Of a stretch of DNA of 64,000 nucleotides, positions 25,555-34,762 are shown in pieces (position 1 is the first letter of the stretch; every line of letters starts with the position of its first letter). The notes below the pieces were generated by a model that was given only the letters and a program-made list of their open reading frames with translations, ran no database searches and was not told where the DNA came from. The stretch comes from Trichormus sp. ATA11-4-KO1 (GTDB taxonomy: Bacteria > Cyanobacteriota > Cyanobacteriia > Cyanobacteriales > Nostocaceae), in NCBI GenBank assembly GCA_019358915.1, contig JAHHIM010000024.1, positions 1 to 64,000 of the forward strand. Reading direction: 5' to 3'. A program made the translations under genes and the position numbers.

Positions 25555-25579
25555 GAAGGAACAATTGAAAATAATTTAG

Positions 25580-25815
25580 CAGCATTACATTTAGAAGAAC
25601 GTCCTCTACGGGGAGAATCTAATATCGCTTTAAAGGTCGGACAAGTTCTTAACCGTTACAAAGTTGGGAAACATTTTAAAATTTATATTAAAGCTGATAG
25701 CTTTTCATTTGAAAGAGATATACAAAAAATCGCATCAGAAGCGGCTTTAGATGGCTCATACATCATTCGTACATCTGTAGCACCTAAAATTTTATCTGCT
25801 GAAGATACTGTCAAG
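25580..25815 (+). pseudogene. Internal fragment of an IS1634-like transposase
   Basis: Start-less frame translates RPLRGESNIALKVGQVLNRYKVGKHFKI...IASEAALDGSYIIRTSV...LSAEDTVK. Confidence 0.7.
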
Positions 25816-25817
25816 AT

Positions 25818-25849
25818 GGTGCGTTGTTGCACCGCGCAACGCACCCTAC
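25818..25849 (-). repeat. GTAG-type REP element
   Basis: Minus strand reads GTAG-GGTGCGTT...AACGCACC hairpin. Confidence 0.7.
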
Positions 25850-25881
25850 TGGCGTGGTAAGGCTTACTAGTTTTGCCAGCA

Positions 25882-26259
25882 TTACCAACCACGTACACCC
25901 ATTCTTTGACAAACAATTTGCATTGCTTTACCTGGTGAAGAAGCGGCTACAAAAGGGATTTCGCCAGTATTGCGCTCTTGTTGAATTATTTGTCCACTAG
26001 TCCCGTAAATAGTAATGTTATTTAAAAAAAGCCGAGATTCTTGGCACGATGCAGAGAACGTAGTCTCAAATATACCGTCTCCATACATTCCGTAAAGTTT
26101 GTATGTCGTGCCTTTAATAGTTTCTGTATCCAGGGCTATATGGTTTCCTACCTTATCATGCCCCACGGTGATATACCTTTCTGCATCTTGAGCATTTACT
26201 ATACTACTGCTCAACAAAACAGCGATCGCTCCCACTATACTGCCTAGTTTAAAAAACAT
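25882..26259 (-). CDS. Hypothetical secreted protein
   Basis: Signal peptide (VNA-Q) and two Cys, 125 aa. Confidence 0.7.
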   Translation of the reverse strand: MFFKLGSIVGAIAVLLSSSIVNAQDAERYITVGHDKVGNHIALDTETIKGTTYKLYGMYGDGIFETTFSASCQESRLFLNNITIYGTSGQIIQQERNTGEIPFVAASSPGKAMQIVCQRMGVRGW

Positions 26260-26497: not shown

Positions 26498-26550
26498 AAA
26501 AAAGGCCTGGCTAAGCCAAGCCCTGATGTATACCAAGCATTTACTACACC
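26498..26550 (-). ncRNA. Predicted small RNA, array unit A
   Basis: -10 TAAATT at 26557-26562, site at 26583-26599, hairpin GGCUUGGC-UUA-GCCAGGCC plus U6; start inferred. Confidence 0.65.
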
Positions 26551-26645
26551 AAGATTAATTTAAAGCTTCTATTCCTTTAGTTCATCCTCCTAAAGGATGT
26601 GTGCAAACAGCCTGATAACTGATAATAAATGACTTGATTACTCAT

Positions 26646-26701
26646 AAAAAAAGGTTCGGTTGTGAACCAAACCTCAATAATTGTTGTGCTTAACAACGTA
26701 C
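26646..26701 (-). ncRNA. Predicted small RNA, array unit B
   Basis: -10 at 26708-26713, site at 26734-26750, hairpin AGGUUUGGUU-CAC-AACCGAACCU plus U-tract. Confidence 0.62.
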
Positions 26702-26850
26702 TAAATTAATTTAAACCTACTATTTTCGCAGTTCATCTTCCTTTGGGATGTACCCAAATTTTTCGGAAACTGTTAAGTCATGATTTTGTTAAAATATTCA
26801 CTATTTCCTATTACGTAAAGTCAATATTTAAGCTGTATATCAAAAGAATG

Positions 26851-26903
26851 AAAAAGGCTTGGGCAAGAGCCAAGCCTTTATGTATACCAGGTGTTTACCA
26901 TAT
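26851..26903 (-). ncRNA. Predicted small RNA, array unit C
   Basis: -10 at 26910-26915, site at 26936-26952, hairpin AAAGGCUUGG...CCAAGCCUUUUU. Confidence 0.65.
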
Positions 26904-27078
26904 CTAGATAATTTATCTGCAATTTGTTATTAATTCATCTGCCTTAAAGATGTGTACAAATATTCTCAAAGCTGATATGCAGCATCGCACATAACTAAAT
27001 AAATCTCTATAAACCTATTCATACTTTGGTGAGATGTCATTTTGCTATAACCAATATCTCACGAGACTTAATTTACCC

Positions 27079-27135
27079 AAAAAGAAAACCCTGGCTTGAT
27101 TTCCAGGGCATATATGTATTTTTCAAGCATTAATA
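27079..27135 (-). ncRNA. Predicted small RNA, array unit D (most diverged)
   Basis: -10 TAATAT at 27142-27147, degenerate site at 27168-27184 at the same 20-bp spacing, hairpin CCCUGG...CCAGGG plus U-rich tail. Confidence 0.5.
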
Positions 27136-27291
27136 GTCCGAATATTAACTGCACAAAAAGTTTGTTGCCCCTATCTATAGAAGGATATAAGATCAATACT
27201 ATTTATGCTAGTTCTAGAAATTTAATTTTTTGTCAATTAATTAAAAACCTTAATATGTAGTGCTACTTGTTGATTATTTCTCTTTTTTTAC

Positions 27292-27343
27292 AAAAGAGGC
27301 TTGGCTATTAGCCAAGCCTCTCTATACCAAGAGTTTACCATAC
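27292..27343 (-). ncRNA. Predicted small RNA, array unit E
   Basis: -10 TAAACT at 27350-27355, site at 27376-27392, perfect AGAGGCUUGGCU/AGCCAAGCCUCU stem. Confidence 0.65.
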
Positions 27344-27656
27344 CTGGTTAGTTTAAATATGCTATTACTTAAGTTCATCTATCTAAAGGTTGTGTCCAGA
27401 TATTATAAAAGCTGCTAGGGGCTGATTCAGATTACTATAATCAATAAAAGCTAACTATCTACTAGATGTTTGATATAATACTAATTACAGAAAAAATTTT
27501 ATCTGTATAATTTATGTTTACTAAATAGAAAATTTAGTGATTTTATTGACTATATTGTTTTTGATAATACACATAAATTTAAAATATTAGATTTTTAATG
27601 ATACTAAAAGCAGAAAAATATAGTATATAATTTTAGAAGCTAAATTGATAACATAT

Positions 27657-27705
27657 AAAAAAGGCTTGGTTCACTGCCAAGCCTTAAGTAGAAGTAGAAT
27701 CTATA
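27657..27705 (-). ncRNA. Predicted small RNA, array unit F
   Basis: -10 at 27712-27717, site at 27738-27754, hairpin AAGGCUUGG...CCAAGCCUUUUUU. Confidence 0.62.
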
Positions 27706-27794
27706 CAGCATAATTTAGCTATTTAAGTTAAATGATTCATCATCCAATAGAGAGTATACAAATATTCTAGAAGCTGATACAGCAGTAACTCATG

Positions 27795-27848
27795 AAAAAG
27801 GTTTAGCTAAATGCTAAACCTCCATAGAAAGCAGTTATTCGACACACC
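27795..27848 (-). ncRNA. Predicted small RNA, array unit G
   Basis: -10 at 27855-27860, site at 27881-27897, compensated stem GGUUUAGC/GCUAAACC plus U5. Confidence 0.62.
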
Positions 27849-28092
27849 AAAATTAATTTAAACCTTCTATTTCTTGAGGTCATCTTCCTAGCGGATGTGT
27901 GCAAGTATGTTGCCATATGATATGTCATTAACTTGACAAACCTTGATAGGAAGTCGTGTTAAATTATGGCGCTGCTGAGTGCAAGGATGATTAATCTCAC
28001 GCAGAGGAGCCACAACGTTGGGTAGGTTCCCCGACTTGTAGCAAGTGGCGATCGCACAAGTGCAGAGAATAAGATTCTTTATCTAAAATCTT

Positions 28093-28217: not shown

Positions 28218-28985
28218 TTAGCGTCTGCTACCACCACGGTAAGGCACTGCATTGAGATAATCAATATCAAATGCAGAAAGCTTTTGTGCGTAGTTACCGT
28301 TACCACTAACTGATGCTGCCATATCCGCATACTTGCGAGGATCACCTTCAGCGAGGCGTTTTTCTTGGAATTTGCGGGTGTAGAATTTCTCCAAAGTAAA
28401 GCGCCAATCGGTTCGGACTGTACCCACTTTTTCTTGGAAGTCTTCGCCGTAGCGGGGAGTTACCAAGTTGTAGGGGCGACCTTCTAAACGCTTGCGTTGG
28501 TAGGGTACGGTGTTGTCACCAAAACTTTGGGTGTACTCGTCGCTATCCACTAGGGCATCAACGAAGCCGCCAAAACCTTTGGTAGCAATAACAATTGACC
28601 AAGCAATTTGTTCGTCTTTGTTGTAAGACGAACGTCCTAACAAACGCTTCAGGGTAATGTCTACTAAACGGTAGTTGTTGTTAACCGAAACTACCAAGCG
28701 ATAGAATGCTTCAGACTTAGCTAGACCTCGGATGAAGTCCCGTACTGATAATGAACCAGTTTTCAGTTGAGATTCCAGAGTCTTTTGGCGGTTGAACTTG
28801 AGAATTTCATGTTCGCTGAAAACTTGGCGATAAGCAGCCCAAGTTATGCTTTGAATATCAGTGTAGGAACTGACATCTTCCAGACGATAGATATAAGGTG
28901 TATCTTCATTCTGGTCAGCTACGCCAAAGCTTTTGACTCGATGATTTTGACTACTGGGTTTGTATTGAAGTAATGGCAGTGCCAT
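28218..28985 (-). CDS. cpcG4: Phycobilisome rod-core linker, CpcG4 type
   Basis: [27 protein letters not shown] start and EGDPRK.ADMAAS tail recognisable as Anabaena CpcG4. Confidence 0.88.
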
Positions 28986-29138
28986 GCTGCGTTCTTCCTC
29001 TTATTAACAAATTAAACAAAAAACTAGCTCTGAAAATGGAAGGAGGTTTGATTACTCAAAATTCTCATTCCGGCTTTACTTATTCTCCCGCATTTATGTT
29101 AGTAGCCGGAGCTGATTCCAAACCAATTTAGTATCAAT

Positions 29139-29882
29139 TTACCGTACAGGGAAATTGGCGCTGGAATCGATAGAAACAGGAACACCTTGCGGTTTAGTGT
29201 TTCTTGTCATGTCAGGAATTTGGATGTTTGCCAGGTTAACTGGTGTGTAGACAACTGTCTTGATTTCGATAGAACTGGCTAATTCCAAGAAATTCTTGAT
29301 ATCGCCTGATTTATACCGCGCATCTTCTAACTTGTCACGCCAGTAGTCACCGTAGCGGGGTGTCACTAGATTAAAGGGTCTATCTTGGAAACGCCGCCGT
29401 TGGTAGGGAACGATATTTTCCCCAAAGTTGGTTTGATACTCTTGAGAGTCGATCAAAGCATCAACAAATCCATTCCAACCGAGAGTGGCTATCTTGATTG
29501 ACCAAGCAATCTCTTCGTCTTTGTTATAAGATGCACGACCTAAAAGTCGTTTGAGGGCAATTTCTACGAGGCGATAGTTGGAGTTGGTTTGTACTACTAA
29601 ATTCCGCAAGGCTTCGGATTTAGCCAAACCCCGGATGAAGTCCCGCACAGTAATTGCTCTATTCTTTACCTGAGATTCTAAATTGCTCTGGCGGTAGAAT
29701 TTCAGGATTTCATGTTCGCTAAAAACCTGCCGATAGGCTGCCCAAATTAACTCTTGGATTTCACCATCAAAGGCATAGTCTTCAATGCGGTAAATTCTGG
29801 GGGTATCTTCGTTAGGTACTTCGTAACCAGGGACGCGTTGGTTTTGGGAACTAGGTTTATATTGCAGTAAAGGGATTGCCAT
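29139..29882 (-). CDS. cpcG2: Phycobilisome rod-core linker, CpcG2 type
   Basis: Linker domain ([19 protein letters not shown]), 247 aa, hydrophilic tail. Confidence 0.85.
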   Translation of the reverse strand: MAIPLLQYKPSSQNQRVPGYEVPNEDTPRIYRIEDYAFDGEIQELIWAAYRQVFSEHEILKFYRQSNLESQVKNRAITVRDFIRGLAKSEALRNLVVQTNSNYRLVEIALKRLLGRASYNKDEEIAWSIKIATLGWNGFVDALIDSQEYQTNFGENIVPYQRRRFQDRPFNLVTPRYGDYWRDKLEDARYKSGDIKNFLELASSIEIKTVVYTPVNLANIQIPDMTRNTKPQGVPVSIDSSANFPVR

Positions 29883-29935
29883 AGTGGATGTGTGGGTGTG
29901 AGTTGGTCTTGGTCATTTGTCCCATGACTCATGCC

Positions 29936-30775
29936 TTAATTTGTCCGGGTTGCCGGAATGTAACGGTAAGGTAGGGACACGGCTGTGGGTTTCACGGTTG
30001 GTTGTGGAGTCCCAACTTCGCGGGAGTTGTCTGGAATCTCCATATCTTTGATTTGGGAAGTAACTGAAGCAATGGTGCGCTGGTAGTTACGTTCGTTGGT
30101 AATCATCTTCCCTGCCATATCTAGGAAGTTGGCGGGAATTACCCGGCGAATCTCTTGTTGAGTGGCGTATCCTGTAGTGCGGGCGTTGTAGAAGGAACGA
30201 CCACCTAGATAAGTCATGGTTTGGCGATCGCGCCAGTAGGAATTGTAGCGGGGATTAACTAAGTTAAAGGGTCTGTCTTGGAAGCGACGGCGTTGAAAAG
30301 GTACGATGTCATCGCCAAAGTTTTGCAGGTACTCTTCGCTGTCTAAGAGACTATCAATGAAACCGTGCAATCCCTTGGTGCCAATCACAATCGACCAGGC
30401 AATTTCCTCGTCTTTGTTGTAGGCAGCACGTCCTAAAAACCGTTTTAAGGTGATATCAACTAAGCGGTAGTTGGAGTTGAGTTCTGCTACCTGTGTCCGG
30501 TAAACTTCCGACTTGCCCAATCCCCGAATAAAATCGCGGACGTTAATAGCCCGATTTCGCAGTTGCGATTCTAAAAATTTTTGGCGATTGCTGTCGATAA
30601 TTAGATGTTCGCTGAAAATTTGCCGATATGCTGCCCAAATGATGGCATCAATATCTGTATCTGAGGTAGCAGCCGCCAACCGGTACATGATTGGTGTATC
30701 TTCGTTGGGTACTTCGTAGCCTTCTACACGTTGATTTTGCGAAGAGGGTGAATAATTCAGTAATGGTATTGACAT
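29936..30775 (-). CDS. cpcG1: Phycobilisome rod-core linker, CpcG1 type
   Basis: Linker domain, 279 aa, LPYRYIP tail, first cpcG after cpcF. Confidence 0.88.
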   Translation of the reverse strand: MSIPLLNYSPSSQNQRVEGYEVPNEDTPIMYRLAAATSDTDIDAIIWAAYRQIFSEHLIIDSNRQKFLESQLRNRAINVRDFIRGLGKSEVYRTQVAELNSNYRLVDITLKRFLGRAAYNKDEEIAWSIVIGTKGLHGFIDSLLDSEEYLQNFGDDIVPFQRRRFQDRPFNLVNPRYNSYWRDRQTMTYLGGRSFYNARTTGYATQQEIRRVIPANFLDMAGKMITNERNYQRTIASVTSQIKDMEIPDNSREVGTPQPTVKPTAVSLPYRYIPATRTN

Positions 30776-30815
30776 ATTTACTTTTGCCTTGTTTTATGGT
30801 ACATAAATCAAGTTA

Positions 30816-31430
30816 TTAGCTATAGGCTAGCTGTACACGGGCCCGGACTGCCTTTTCCACATCGGTTGCTAGCATCTCTTTGAGTCTAGTCTGGATGGGT
30901 TGCTGTAAATCGGGTATTTTGGCCAAGGCTTGCAGACCCACAACGGCGGCATAACGTATTGACCATTCCGAGTCTTGGGAAATGAAAAGCAGCGCTTCCC
31001 AAGCTTTTTTAGGTGCTGTGTGGCTGTCGGGAAAGTTGAGCTGATGCCAGTGCAGGTTTCCTAATCCCTTCGCAGCAGCACGGCGGACACTAGGGGCAAA
31101 GTCTGTAGTTGCTGCTGTGATTAAAACATCTAAAGCACGGGGGTCAGCGATCGCCGCTAAGGTCCGAATCGAATAAGCCCGTGCCCCATAGTTATAATCA
31201 TCAATTTGGGTTAGCAATTGTGGTACTGCTATTTGTCCAAATTCTGTGAGTGCAGCTACTGCCACCGTTGCAGCTGCTGGGTTGTTATAACCAAACACCG
31301 CTATTAAGGTGGGAATGGCTGCGACATCTTTCGCTGCTGCTAAGTTTTGCACTGCCGCCACCATTTTTGCTGGTGTATCTGCCAGGGCGACGGCACAAAT
31401 TAATTCATCAGTCAAGTCGCTTCGCTCCAA
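30816..31430 (-). CDS. cpcF: Phycocyanin alpha-84 lyase subunit CpcF
   Basis: HEAT repeats, FGYNNPAAA, YNYGARAY, DFAPSVRRAA. Confidence 0.93.
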   Translation of the reverse strand: MERSDLTDELICAVALADTPAKMVAAVQNLAAAKDVAAIPTLIAVFGYNNPAAATVAVAALTEFGQIAVPQLLTQIDDYNYGARAYSIRTLAAIADPRALDVLITAATTDFAPSVRRAAAKGLGNLHWHQLNFPDSHTAPKKAWEALLFISQDSEWSIRYAAVVGLQALAKIPDLQQPIQTRLKEMLATDVEKAVRARVQLAYS

Positions 31431-31480
31431 TTAGTAATTAGTAATTCGTAATTCGTAGTTCGTAATTACGAATTACTAAT
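31431..31480. repeat. Heptamer tandem repeats (GTAATTC/GTAATTA) arranged palindromically between cpcE and cpcF
   Basis: TTAGTAATTAGTAATTCGTAATTCGTAGTTCGTAATTACGAATTACTAAT. Confidence 0.8.
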
Positions 31481-31489
31481 TATTAATAA

Positions 31490-32320
31490 CTACAACAGTG
31501 AATCCATCAGGTTCATCACCCGGATTGCATTATCAGAAACAGATACAGCATCGAACTCTTGGGTGAGTTGATGCTCTAGCAATCCTTTGAGGGCGATGAG
31601 TTTGAAGCTGTTTTCTGCTTTGGCGTTAGCGATCGCCTCTGCTGCTGCCATATAGCCGATTGCACCCAAATCGCCTAAGGCAACGCGGCGCAATTTCAGG
31701 TCACCAATGTCCAACATCTTCACTAACCGTTCCCCATAAATAGGGTTTTGTGTCAGTTGGTACATGGCTCTGGCTGCGGCACACTGTACTCGTGGAACTT
31801 CATGCTCCAAGAAAGGTTGAATTAGAGAAATCGCTTCAGTTGCACCAATAGCTCCCAAGGCTTCTAATACCGCTTCATAGGGCTGAGTTAGATGAGGGCA
31901 TCCCGGTATTTGCACGGCCTGTGCGATACCCCCATCTAACATTTTTATGAGTGCTGGCACCGCAGTTTGATCACCCAGCATTTGCAGGGACTGGGCTGCT
32001 GCTTCTCGAACATAAAAGTCAGGGCATTCTAAGCACTCAATTAAGCCTGGTACAGCTTTGGCATTCCCTAGTTTTCCCAGTGCTCTGGCTGCATTGCGTC
32101 GTAGGGGATAACCGCCCAGTTCTGTTCTGTCGGCTTCATCTTTTAACGCCGCAATTAAAGCATCTACAGCAGCTGGTTGATTGACCCGGAACTTGCCCAG
32201 CCACCAAGCTGCATAATAGCGGAGACTTAAATCTGATGATTGCAGGTTGGCGATTGCTAGCTCTGGTGTAAGCTGTGGCGCATTCTCAGCAGAATGTTCT
32301 GCTGCATTGGGTTCTATCAT
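31490..32320 (-). CDS. cpcE: Phycocyanin alpha-84 lyase subunit CpcE
   Basis: LRYYAAWWLG, GGYPLRRNAARALG, MDSLL end. Confidence 0.95.
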   Translation of the reverse strand: MIEPNAAEHSAENAPQLTPELAIANLQSSDLSLRYYAAWWLGKFRVNQPAAVDALIAALKDEADRTELGGYPLRRNAARALGKLGNAKAVPGLIECLECPDFYVREAAAQSLQMLGDQTAVPALIKMLDGGIAQAVQIPGCPHLTQPYEAVLEALGAIGATEAISLIQPFLEHEVPRVQCAAARAMYQLTQNPIYGERLVKMLDIGDLKLRRVALGDLGAIGYMAAAEAIANAKAENSFKLIALKGLLEHQLTQEFDAVSVSDNAIRVMNLMDSLL

Positions 32321-32330
32321 TGCCAGGAAG

Positions 32331-32594
32331 TTAGTTTTCTATGGCTACGCCACGCAAGCTATCAGCGCTCAATGGCTCAATTTTGATGATTTTGCCACCT
32401 AGGCGGTTAATCCGTTGCATTTCTTCGTTCATCCGACTGTATGGCACGGTAATGAATACACTGCCGCTACGACGGATATCGAATTTATTTTTGTCGGTTT
32501 CTGAGTTTTGGCGCAAGCCTACGACTTCATAACGAAATACTCGGCTTGCAGATGAAGAAACGCTACCAGCCCCAAGTGTGGTTTGACCGAACAT
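32331..32594 (-). CDS. cpcD: Rod-capping linker CpcD with a C-terminal insertion
   Basis: SRVFRYEVVGL...VPYSRMNEEMQRINRLGGKI. Confidence 0.95.
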   Translation of the reverse strand: MFGQTTLGAGSVSSSASRVFRYEVVGLRQNSETDKNKFDIRRSGSVFITVPYSRMNEEMQRINRLGGKIIKIEPLSADSLRGVAIEN

Positions 32595-32637
32595 TACTTC
32601 TATATCTCCTCTACTGTTTGAGTAACGTAACGCTACC

Positions 32638-33498
32638 TTACGCTGACGTAATGCTGGCGATTTTGCCGCCTACTCGATGAATCTGCTGCATTTTGTCTAA
32701 CAACCGCTCGTAAGGTACAATAAACACTGTACTGCTACGACGCACACTGGGATAGCCAGTGCCACGGATTGCTGTTACTTCAATGCGGTAAACGCGATCG
32801 CCTTGACCCACAGCATTACCTAAATTCTTCTTGGGCGCTACATCTGCTGATGCCCGGAAATTCCAGTTATCATTACTTCCAGATGGGCCAACAATGGAGG
32901 AAGCTTTGTTACTAGCTAACTCTTGCGCTAACCGCGATTTTTTCCCTTCTACTTGAGCGCGATCGCTATTGGCATAACCCCGGTATAACCGGAAAAGACG
33001 GTTAAAACCTACAGTTTTTTGTCCCGGTTGAGTTTCAAAACCACGATAATAAGGGACAATGCTGTCGCCAAAGTTGTTTTGGTACTCTACAGAATCAATG
33101 TAGGAGTCAATTTCCGCGTCGTAACCTTTTGTTTGGTACAAGTCTAGGTGGTAAACAACTTCCGATTCATCGTAGGGCGCACGACCCAAAAGATGCTTGT
33201 AGTTGAGTTCAATCAACCGGGTTTGGAAACTGTTATAAAAAAACTTGGTTTTGTAGAGTTCTGATTTGGCAACGCTGCGAACAAACTCTCGCACTGTCAG
33301 GTTGCCGTCCCGCAAGAGTGATTCTGCACTAACCAGACGTTCTGATGCCATCAAATAGTCATTACCCAAAACTTGCCGATAAACGGCGCGGATAACTACC
33401 TCTACTTCATCTTTGCTGGCGTTAGGGCGCAGTTCAACTCGACGTACCTCGCTAAAAGGCTCTGTTCCTAGCCTTGATGCTGCTGCTGTAATTGCCAT
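32638..33498 (-). CDS. cpcC: Phycocyanin rod linker CpcC
   Basis: [28 protein letters not shown] and CpcD-like C-terminus. Confidence 0.96.
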
Positions 33499-33593
33499 TT
33501 TTCTTCACTACCTATTTATTTGCATTTCGGCTGCTTTTGCCGAGTGCTGGCTTTGCTAAAGCTTTTCTTTTTAATCTCTGCCTAAATAAAACT

Positions 33594-33657
33594 TTGCCCG
33601 GGGCGAGATCCAACTGCTGGGTGACTCCATCCAACACTTGCATCCCTCTCCGGGCAA
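33594..33657 (-). terminator. Stem-loop after cpcA (stabiliser or attenuator of the cpcBA transcript)
   Basis: TTGCCCGG...CCGGGCAA inverted repeat immediately after the cpcA stop. Confidence 0.6.
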
Positions 33658-33666
33658 GATGGCTAT

Positions 33667-34158
33667 CTAGCTAAGAGCGTTGATAGCGTAGTCAAGGTAG
33701 GTGTTGGCTTCGTTAGCAGCTTGTCCAGTCAAACCATGATTGGCTTTGATGTGCTTGAGAGCTTCAACGTACCAGCTGGGAGACAAATCAAAGGAGCTGT
33801 TGATTTCAGCCAAGCCAGCGATTAAATATTCATCCAAGGGGCCTGTACCACCAGCAACCAAGCTGTAGGTAACGATACGTAGGTAGTGACCAACGTCACG
33901 AGCACACTTGGATTTACCACGGCTGTCAGCAGCAAACTGAGGGCCTGCTGTTTGGGTGGTGTAGGGGAATTTTTGGTATACAGCTTGGGTTGCACCATCA
34001 ATTAGACGTTGTGCATTGGCGGTCAAACCACGAGCAGCTTCCATGCTAGCAATAGCACGTACATAACGACCGTTAACTGCTTGCAGTTCGGTGTTGCTTA
34101 AGAAACGTCCTTGGGTATCAGCAGACGCAATTGCTTCGGTAATCGGTGTCTTAACCAT
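33667..34158 (-). CDS. cpcA: C-phycocyanin alpha subunit
   Basis: [31 protein letters not shown]. Confidence 0.98.
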
Positions 34159-34240
34159 CTTCTAAAATCTCCTTGGTATTTCGTAAATTTTGGACTGGTT
34201 ACCTATATTTATAGGTGCTGGGCTTTTTGTTAACGTGCTA

Positions 34241-34762
34241 TTAAGCAACAGCAGCAGCAGCACGATCAAAGTAGCTAGCTACTTCAGACATCAATTGGCT
34301 GCAATCGCCTTTGGTGATACCGTTAGGATCGTTAGCAATGCTAACCGCAGCATCTTTCATTTTTTGCACGCCTACAGCTACGGAAGAACCAGGTGTACCC
34401 AAAGCTTGGTAGGTTTCACGCAAACCGTTCAAGCAACGGTCATCTAGAACACTGGCATCACCAGCCAAAATAGCGTAGGTGACGTAGCGCAAGATGATTT
34501 CCATGTCGCGTAGACAAGCAGCCATACGACGGTTGGTGTAAGCATTACCACCAGGAGCAATCAGTTGGGGTTGTTCTTCAAACAAAGAACGAGCAGCGTT
34601 GGTAACGATCGCGGAAGCGTTGCTGGTGATGCGGTTAACAACATCCAAGCGCTTGTTGCCTTCTCTAACAACGTTGGATAGAGCATCTAGTTGCTCGTTG
34701 CTGAGGAACTCGCCTCTAGAGTCAGCTTGAGAAACTACCTTGGTGAATACATCTAATGTCAT
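34241..34762 (-). CDS. cpcB: C-phycocyanin beta subunit
   Basis: [28 protein letters not shown]. Confidence 0.98.

Follow-up and report, generated by a model that had tools for sequence, protein, structure and literature searches.

A fixed-order cassette of predicted small-RNA genes with nearly invariant, paralogue-specific 5' segments in Nostocales

Organization of the locus

We analysed a window of 64,000 nucleotides from Trichormus sp. ATA11-4-KO1 (contig JAHHIM010000024.1). Seven small units, A to G, occupy the minus strand of the gap between cpcG4 (28218..28985, minus strand, upstream neighbour; NCBIfam Rod_Core_CpcG4 over cut-off) and a hypothetical 125-aa gene (25882..26259, minus strand, downstream neighbour; no Pfam or NCBIfam family). 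The original prediction had described them as an array of small-RNA-like genes, and all seven were found in the window sequence at the positions proposed. Units A, B, C, E, F and G share one layout: an element ending in GATGA comes first, 20 bp ahead of a -10 box (TAAATT or TAAACT), and after about 25-30 nt a stem follows with its U run. In unit G (27794..27921, minus strand) the promoter element lies at 27921-27879 and the -10 box at 27860-27855, and the predicted RNA with its terminator covers ~27848-27794. Unit F (27657..27778, minus strand) has the promoter element, a -10 box at 27717-27712, a predicted RNA at ~27705-27657 and a terminator at 27685-27661, while unit E (27292..27416, minus strand) has the element, a -10 box at 27355-27350 and a predicted RNA at ~27343-27292. 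For unit C (26851..26976, minus strand), which also carries the element, the -10 box is at 26915-26910, the predicted RNA at ~26903-26851 and the terminator at 26879-26853. Units B (26646..26774, minus strand; -10 box 26713-26708) and A (26498..26623, minus strand; -10 box 26562-26557) are orthologues of the Nostoc PCC 7120 RNAs 5335648r and 5335498r, and their predicted RNAs run from 26700 to ~26646 and from 26549 to ~26498, respectively. Unit D (27079..27215, minus strand) is small-RNA-like and has its own promoter variant, with a predicted RNA at ~27138-27079 and a terminator at 27109-27088. The proposed 20-bp spacing to the -10 hexamer and the shared terminator scaffold hold for six units and fail for D, which has a stem of its own; the proposed CATC-N9-GATG site is exact in A, B, C and G, has CAAC in E and CTCT in F, and is missing from D. 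Mean column identity among the window units is 67%.

Eight terminator-like sites were detected between 26300 and 28220, compared with 0.7 +/- 0.9 in shuffled sequences, and five of the seven units were covered; E and G were missed by the terminator scanner, and the stems of both fold in separate folding. As predicted, the A and B stems favour the minus strand, with folding energies of -20.7 vs -11.4 kcal/mol for A and -16.3 vs -12.7 kcal/mol for B. The stems also covary as proposed: two-sided changes were found in 6 of 10 pairs across 34 units, a level reached by 0 of 500 shuffles and with lower values for slid controls, the structure having been read from the same 34 units and the shuffle not controlling for relatedness. 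We regard it as almost certain that the units are small-RNA genes.

The linkage to cpcG4 that had been suggested did not hold up, as cpcG4 adjoins none of the 93 further loci with an array (the GTDB loci extend no more than 2.5 kb from B, and neighbours beyond long arrays could be missed). It is incidental, and cpcG4 is not part of the system. The same applies to the 125-aa gene, which lies beside the array in 1 of 93 loci, that of the same-genus genome. Array neighbours change from genus to genus and no protein gene travels with the array. Such differing flanks, together with the position of the array behind cpcG4 on the same strand, would suit repeats of the mobile-element or REP type, or 3' elements that belong to the cpc operon. 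This reading is extremely unlikely, however, given that only the array and one solo copy exist genome-wide, that unit order is fixed, that starts have been mapped for orthologues and that cpcG4 is absent from the other loci. The genome-wide scatter of a MITE or REP family, raised in the original prediction as a competing outcome, was absent, and the promoter element is kept at the units.

Two observations concern the surroundings. The phycocyanin operon (28218-34762) has three rod-core linker genes; the two scanned are CpcG4 and CpcG2, and the third, of 279 aa, is like CpcG1, so that cpcG3 appears to be missing. On the other side, a stretch at ~25560-25850 that resembles a transposase remnant, which may be IS1634-like, overlaps the end of a 292-aa ORF.

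Relation to RF02596 and to mapped RNAs

The units had not been recognised as a described family. An Rfam search of the window matched RF02596 to E (32.6 bits), B (29.1 bits), G (29.0 bits), C (22.7 bits) and F (18.4 bits, stem only), all below the gathering cut-off of 35.7 bits, and gave no RF02596 match for A and D. A full-score RF02596 match of 87.1 bits lies elsewhere in the genome, at G000:C55:77338-77393. This solo copy has its promoter element, -10 box and terminator stem in common with A, B, C, E, F and G. A leave-out profile was built from 53 units of other genomes, with own-genome, same-genus and D-class units excluded. In the 5.97-Mb genome it recovered all window units except D, as well as the solo copy, with scores of 63-108 bits (E 108.3, C 104.8, G 104.5, F 62.9), and the other matches at E<0.3 were only short stem matches of 18 bits at best (the same loci and two weak ones). 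When up to one mismatch is allowed, the 19-mer of the solo RNA has a single match in this genome, the solo locus itself, and B shares most of the solo 5' segment. Judged by their sequences, A, B, C, E, F and G are paralogues, not formal members, of RF02596, whose orthologue is the solo copy elsewhere. Both kinds of gene would encode RNAs of ~50-56 nt, agree in promoter element, -10 box and terminator stem, and occur in the same genome set; RF02596/4547237r is a single gene at another locus, whereas the array units have their own 5' segments and sit in a cassette.

Unit D was not detected by the profile that finds the other six. It has a CCCTGG/CCAGGG stem and its own 5' segment. Among the matches listed, D was present in 42 of 80 GTDB loci (78 of them cyanobacterial). 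Its 19-nt segment is identical in 32 of these, and the copy in this genome deviates from it. D is a conserved gene of like build and at most a putative homologue of the other six.

Three members of the family coincide with entries of a published map of Nostoc PCC 7120 (PMC4734099). In the portion of that paper covered here, the sRNA 4547237r, which the solo copy matches in sequence, is described as verified by primer extension and Northern analysis and as induced in dense cultures and upon long nitrogen starvation. The orthologues of A and B are separate entries of its Table S3, without family comment or function, and 5335648r is marked as Northern-validated with the blot not shown. They lie in the same order as here, 150 nt apart compared with 151 for A and B, and their starts correspond to 26549 and 26700, in good agreement with the predicted 26550 and 26701. 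Read numbers with vs without ammonium are given as 121 vs 9 for the B orthologue, 8 vs 4 for the A orthologue and 4 vs 1 for the solo RNA. No rows for C to G were found in the covered portion of Table S3, and the covered main text mentions neither an array nor a link among 4547237r, 5335498r and 5335648r. These mapped orthologues add to the support for the original proposal of individual minus-strand RNAs of ~50 nt, each having a promoter and a terminator of its own. The claim that no described family was involved has to be given up, since the units are paralogues of RF02596/4547237r and two of them have orthologues in a published table.

We found no description of the array or of targets in the literature covered; subscription papers, theses, figures and supplements may hold more. 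The "tandem array" of PMC3610870 refers, in the part covered, to NsiR1. The fixed-order cassette with paralogue-specific invariant 5' segments appears to be new, and the solo RNA and the A and B orthologues had already been catalogued. In PCC 7120, according to the covered part of PMC4734099, the heterocyst sRNA NsiR8 has its start ~320 nt ahead of 4547237r and runs in the same orientation; upstream of the solo copy in this genome, a hairpin with a T run (L001:1100-1210, G000:C55) occupies a similar position.

Distribution and conservation

An exact scan with the B segment returned 112 stretches, and the 80 that were listed entered the analysis. Two of these 80 were chance matches in Catenovulum, 74 had Nostocales titles and four were otherwise labelled cyanobacteria. 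Among the matches listed, 74 of the 78 cyanobacterial loci contained 2-9 units, and the order G-F-E-D-(C)-B-A-H was kept in all 78, a count that uses labelled classes only and is trivial for short arrays. Arrays of 3-8 profile-detected units, some of them split, were found in 10 of 10 relatives with a full-score solo copy. In the 201 family genomes sampled, the solo 19-mer was exact and single in 102, with no one-mismatch variant, and C/E-type segments occurred in 98 (98 of the 102 with the solo copy, none of the 99 without). Bearers are nitrogen-fixing filamentous cyanobacteria and include records of Nostoc, Anabaena, Dolichospermum, Aphanizomenon, Nodularia and Raphidiopsis.

Several smaller rearrangements were noticed among the relatives. 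Part of genus g66 (G066, G142, G163, G179 and G192 vs G112, G204 and G213) seems to have lost the family or to be losing it; the A and H units that remain in G179 are degenerate. G068, G113 and G143, which belong to one genus, have their C and E-type units on opposite strands at a distance of ~200 bp, indicating an inversion within the cassette, and in G103 the C/E-type pair is duplicated 5.3 kb apart. Two loci (L021:3927-4050 in G005 and L018:5178-5245 in G018) combine the shared promoter with unfamiliar 5' segments, so more unit classes may exist.

The 5' segments (19-25 nt) differ between paralogues and are nearly invariant between genera. Their description as diversified was therefore right for paralogues, and their description as variable was not. 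Column identity is 0.99 for A (46 units), 0.97 for G (53), 0.96 for C (60), 0.92 for E (35), 0.87 for F (25) and 0.86 for H (25), while within-class identity is 0.78-0.90 for the promoter element and 0.56-0.85 for the spacer. The segments are better kept than the promoters of their own class. B was left out of this argument as it had been selected by its own sequence, which would be circular, and four units were unassigned. Segments kept base for base across 35 genera point to strong selection. Promoters of one class taken from different genomes resemble each other more closely (0.65) than those of different classes taken from the same genome (0.55), which indicates that the paralogues are old and have not been homogenised.

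Promoter element

The CATC-N9-GATG site, poorly conserved in its left half, turned out to be only the right part of a longer element of ~43 bp. Trained on other genera, this element scored >40 only at six units and the solo copy, with the next score at 18, and a scan for the element plus -10 box had the same outcome, with no other strong promoter. A weak match of this kind (18.4) at G000:C46:4388 (L330) lies upstream of a probable glycosyltransferase gene and is not followed by an RNA unit. Scanning with a sigma-70 consensus gave no -35/-10 pair at the unit promoters, and the -10 box is present; we infer from this combination that an activator binds at about -73 to -32. The geometry of the element is reminiscent of LysR boxes, and the positions, near -65 and next to -35, would fit, but the LysR-type motif T-N11-A was found as a proximal site in only 150 of 305 units and as a distal site in only 118 of 305. 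A LysR-type regulator would be a weak candidate; seven LysR genes were located. The shared element also suggests co-regulation; the published read numbers of the B, A and solo RNAs differ from one another. One dedicated regulator, probably an activator, would likely switch on the cassette. As published cues, the covered part of PMC4734099 offers culture density and prolonged nitrogen starvation for the solo copy and ammonium for B.

Candidate targets and mode of action

For individual mRNA targets, the best scores obtained in the single genome were no better than those of shuffled segments. Eleven candidates, picked by hand from the ranked lists, were therefore followed into relatives. Three of them held: a 276-aa hypothetical gene, psaK and desB, all with GUG starts.

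The 276-aa gene (G000:C65:25148) lies downstream of a group-2-type sigma factor gene and matched no Pfam, NCBIfam or named Atlas family. B can pair with an uninterrupted run of 12 bases from the GUG onward, and pairing by the solo RNA would extend from about -8 to +14. Orthologues were compared using one genome per genus, with the same-genus genome and three genomes without a locatable start dropped. In this set, the predicted B duplex reaches -15 kcal/mol or better in 24 of the 32 genomes that have the solo RNA, the remaining 8 having a weak B site, and in none of the 16 that lack it. With a Shine-Dalgarno sequence included, the site is present in 62 of the 102 genomes that have the solo RNA, compared with 6 of the 99 that lack it. 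Among site-bearing genomes without the solo seed, five were checked: three gave no RF02596 match (G066, G142 and G163), one has decayed A and H units and one gave only stem-like matches. Within the site, leucine at codon 2 is CTT in 25 of 28, while six control leucine codons range from 0.41 to 0.66 and 37 control codons have a mean of 0.58 and a maximum of 0.84. Asparagine at codon 3 is AAC in 26 of 28, codon 4 alternates between C and T as wobble allows, codon 6 drifts, and identity drops past codon 5, the limit of the pairing region.

Pairing with this GUG site is possible for B, for the solo copy and for class H alike. This shared site could mean that redundant copies only raise the dosage on one shared target, and in line with that C and E differ at two bases and some genomes keep 1-2 units near B. 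Such redundancy is nevertheless very improbable, as the classes are held separately in fixed order at 78 of 78 loci among the matches listed and F, G and D share little with the other units.

For psaK (PF01241), GTG is the start codon in 17 of the 20 family genomes and TTG in all 7 of the others, and only GTG pairs with C; mean C duplexes are -15.7 in family genomes and -7.4 in the others. The third candidate is a PF00487 desaturase whose sequence suggests a desB-type enzyme. Position -2 of this gene is C or T, which pair, in 18 of 22 genomes with the family and A in 4 of 4 without. Family-bearing genomes form one clade, so these target contrasts are not independent and could be explained by shared ancestry.

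Of the other candidates, an antiporter-like gene, a CheY-like gene, a pilin-like gene and a PadR-like gene were not conserved in relatives; apart from the receiver domain of the CheY-like gene, these names are readings of the sequences. A NarL-type regulator (1 of 5) and a UbiA-like gene (1 of 5) were too sporadic for a verdict, a 139-aa gene was absent (0 of 5), and dps as a target of F was uninformative. So was an 87-aa gene considered for E, which had an equally good site in 9 genomes without the family and in 22 with it; the start region of this gene (L328:1767-2027, G000:C73), which has no Pfam family, is near-identical in 31 of 31 genomes.

Taken from these comparisons, the reading that we favour, and consider somewhat probable, is that the RNAs act in trans and block translation by pairing their 5' segments with mRNA start regions. 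The ~20-nt segments would likely pair with the translation starts of different mRNAs and block ribosome loading. The predicted targets are the 276-aa gene for B and the solo copy, desB for the solo copy and psaK for C. A precedent is found in the covered part of PMC9045159, where NsiR1 copies repress different mRNAs at start codons. Our confidence is held at this level by the single clade, by the candidates that mostly failed or were uninformative, and by A, D, E, F and G having no supported target among those followed. It also counts against pairing that invariance extends over 19-24 nt and so exceeds the 10-12 bp seeds of B and C.

This invariance over the whole 19-24 nt would suit RNAs that mainly bind and titrate a protein, as in an RsmY/RsmZ-like sponge, with paralogues differing in affinity or timing. 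Weak 5' stem-loops in A, B, C, E and F and the five of seven units without a supported target agree with this. We consider it unlikely all the same, since no motif is common to all 5' segments, D and G have no stable 5' fold, and a single protein would not need a different sequence kept per class.

Another possibility is that the RNAs are guides, with the conserved stem as a handle for a shared protein and the 5' ~20 nt directing the complex to RNA or DNA. The layout is that of a guide plus handle, the primary sequence of the stem is kept (four pairs unchanged in 30-33 of 34 units), and cyanobacteria lack RNA-binding Hfq, ProQ and CsrA (PMC11797042, in the part covered). The stem conservation may, however, reflect common descent, and no protein gene accompanies the array. 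The segments have no match of at least 15 nt elsewhere in the genome, nothing longer than 9 nt against the 23S region of G018 (the genome's own rRNA being unassembled) and nothing longer than 10 nt against its 43 tRNA/tmRNA genes. Segment A, the one class searched, had no exact matches in viral contigs. Guides of this kind thus appear quite improbable. A CRISPR-like guide array in particular was rejected, since the segments are conserved across genera, show no self match of at least 15 nt and have no constant neighbour.

Comparison with known systems

A close precedent for the pairing reading in Nostocales is NsiR1 (RF02399), which, in the covered part of PMC9045159, likewise consists of tandem sRNA genes with individual promoters. 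It differs in its DIF1 promoters, in having 7 identical copies of 12, and in its hetF linkage. The array has neither identical copies nor a constant neighbour, and its classes are each kept across genera. As originally stated, it is not NsiR1: the window gave no RF02399 match at E up to 5, and the DIF1 motif TCCGGA was seen by eye in none of the units. NsrR1 was dismissed as it has a different locus and size (PMC6166021, in the part covered).

Paralogous trans-acting sRNAs with shared promoter input are familiar from other bacteria. Vibrio Qrr1-5 with LuxO, OmrA/B, PrrF1/2 and AbcR1/2 are examples, and the siblings of the Qrr, OmrA/B, PrrF and AbcR groups mostly share one seed and need Hfq. 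In the array, by contrast, every paralogue retains a ~20-nt segment of its own. What had been an orphan Rfam RNA and a pair of table entries is thereby united into a single family. Its eight to ten paralogues share a private promoter, and roughly half of the 201 family genomes sampled carry it. With three members mapped in the tractable PCC 7120, targets, regulator and sRNA action without RNA-binding Hfq become testable. A bolder and rather unlikely version would make the cassette a bacterial counterpart of a microRNA cluster, in which one private transcription factor controls eight to ten ~50-nt RNAs that are loaded by their conserved stems on a novel cyanobacterial effector protein and whose fixed ~20-nt 5' guides each silence a separate set of mRNAs at start codons; if true, it would define a developmental or stationary-phase programme of one Nostocales clade. 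Elsewhere in the genome, phage-tail-like genes (sheath- and tube-like by sequence) were noted beside a two-component pair (L149, G000:C17:21000-29400).
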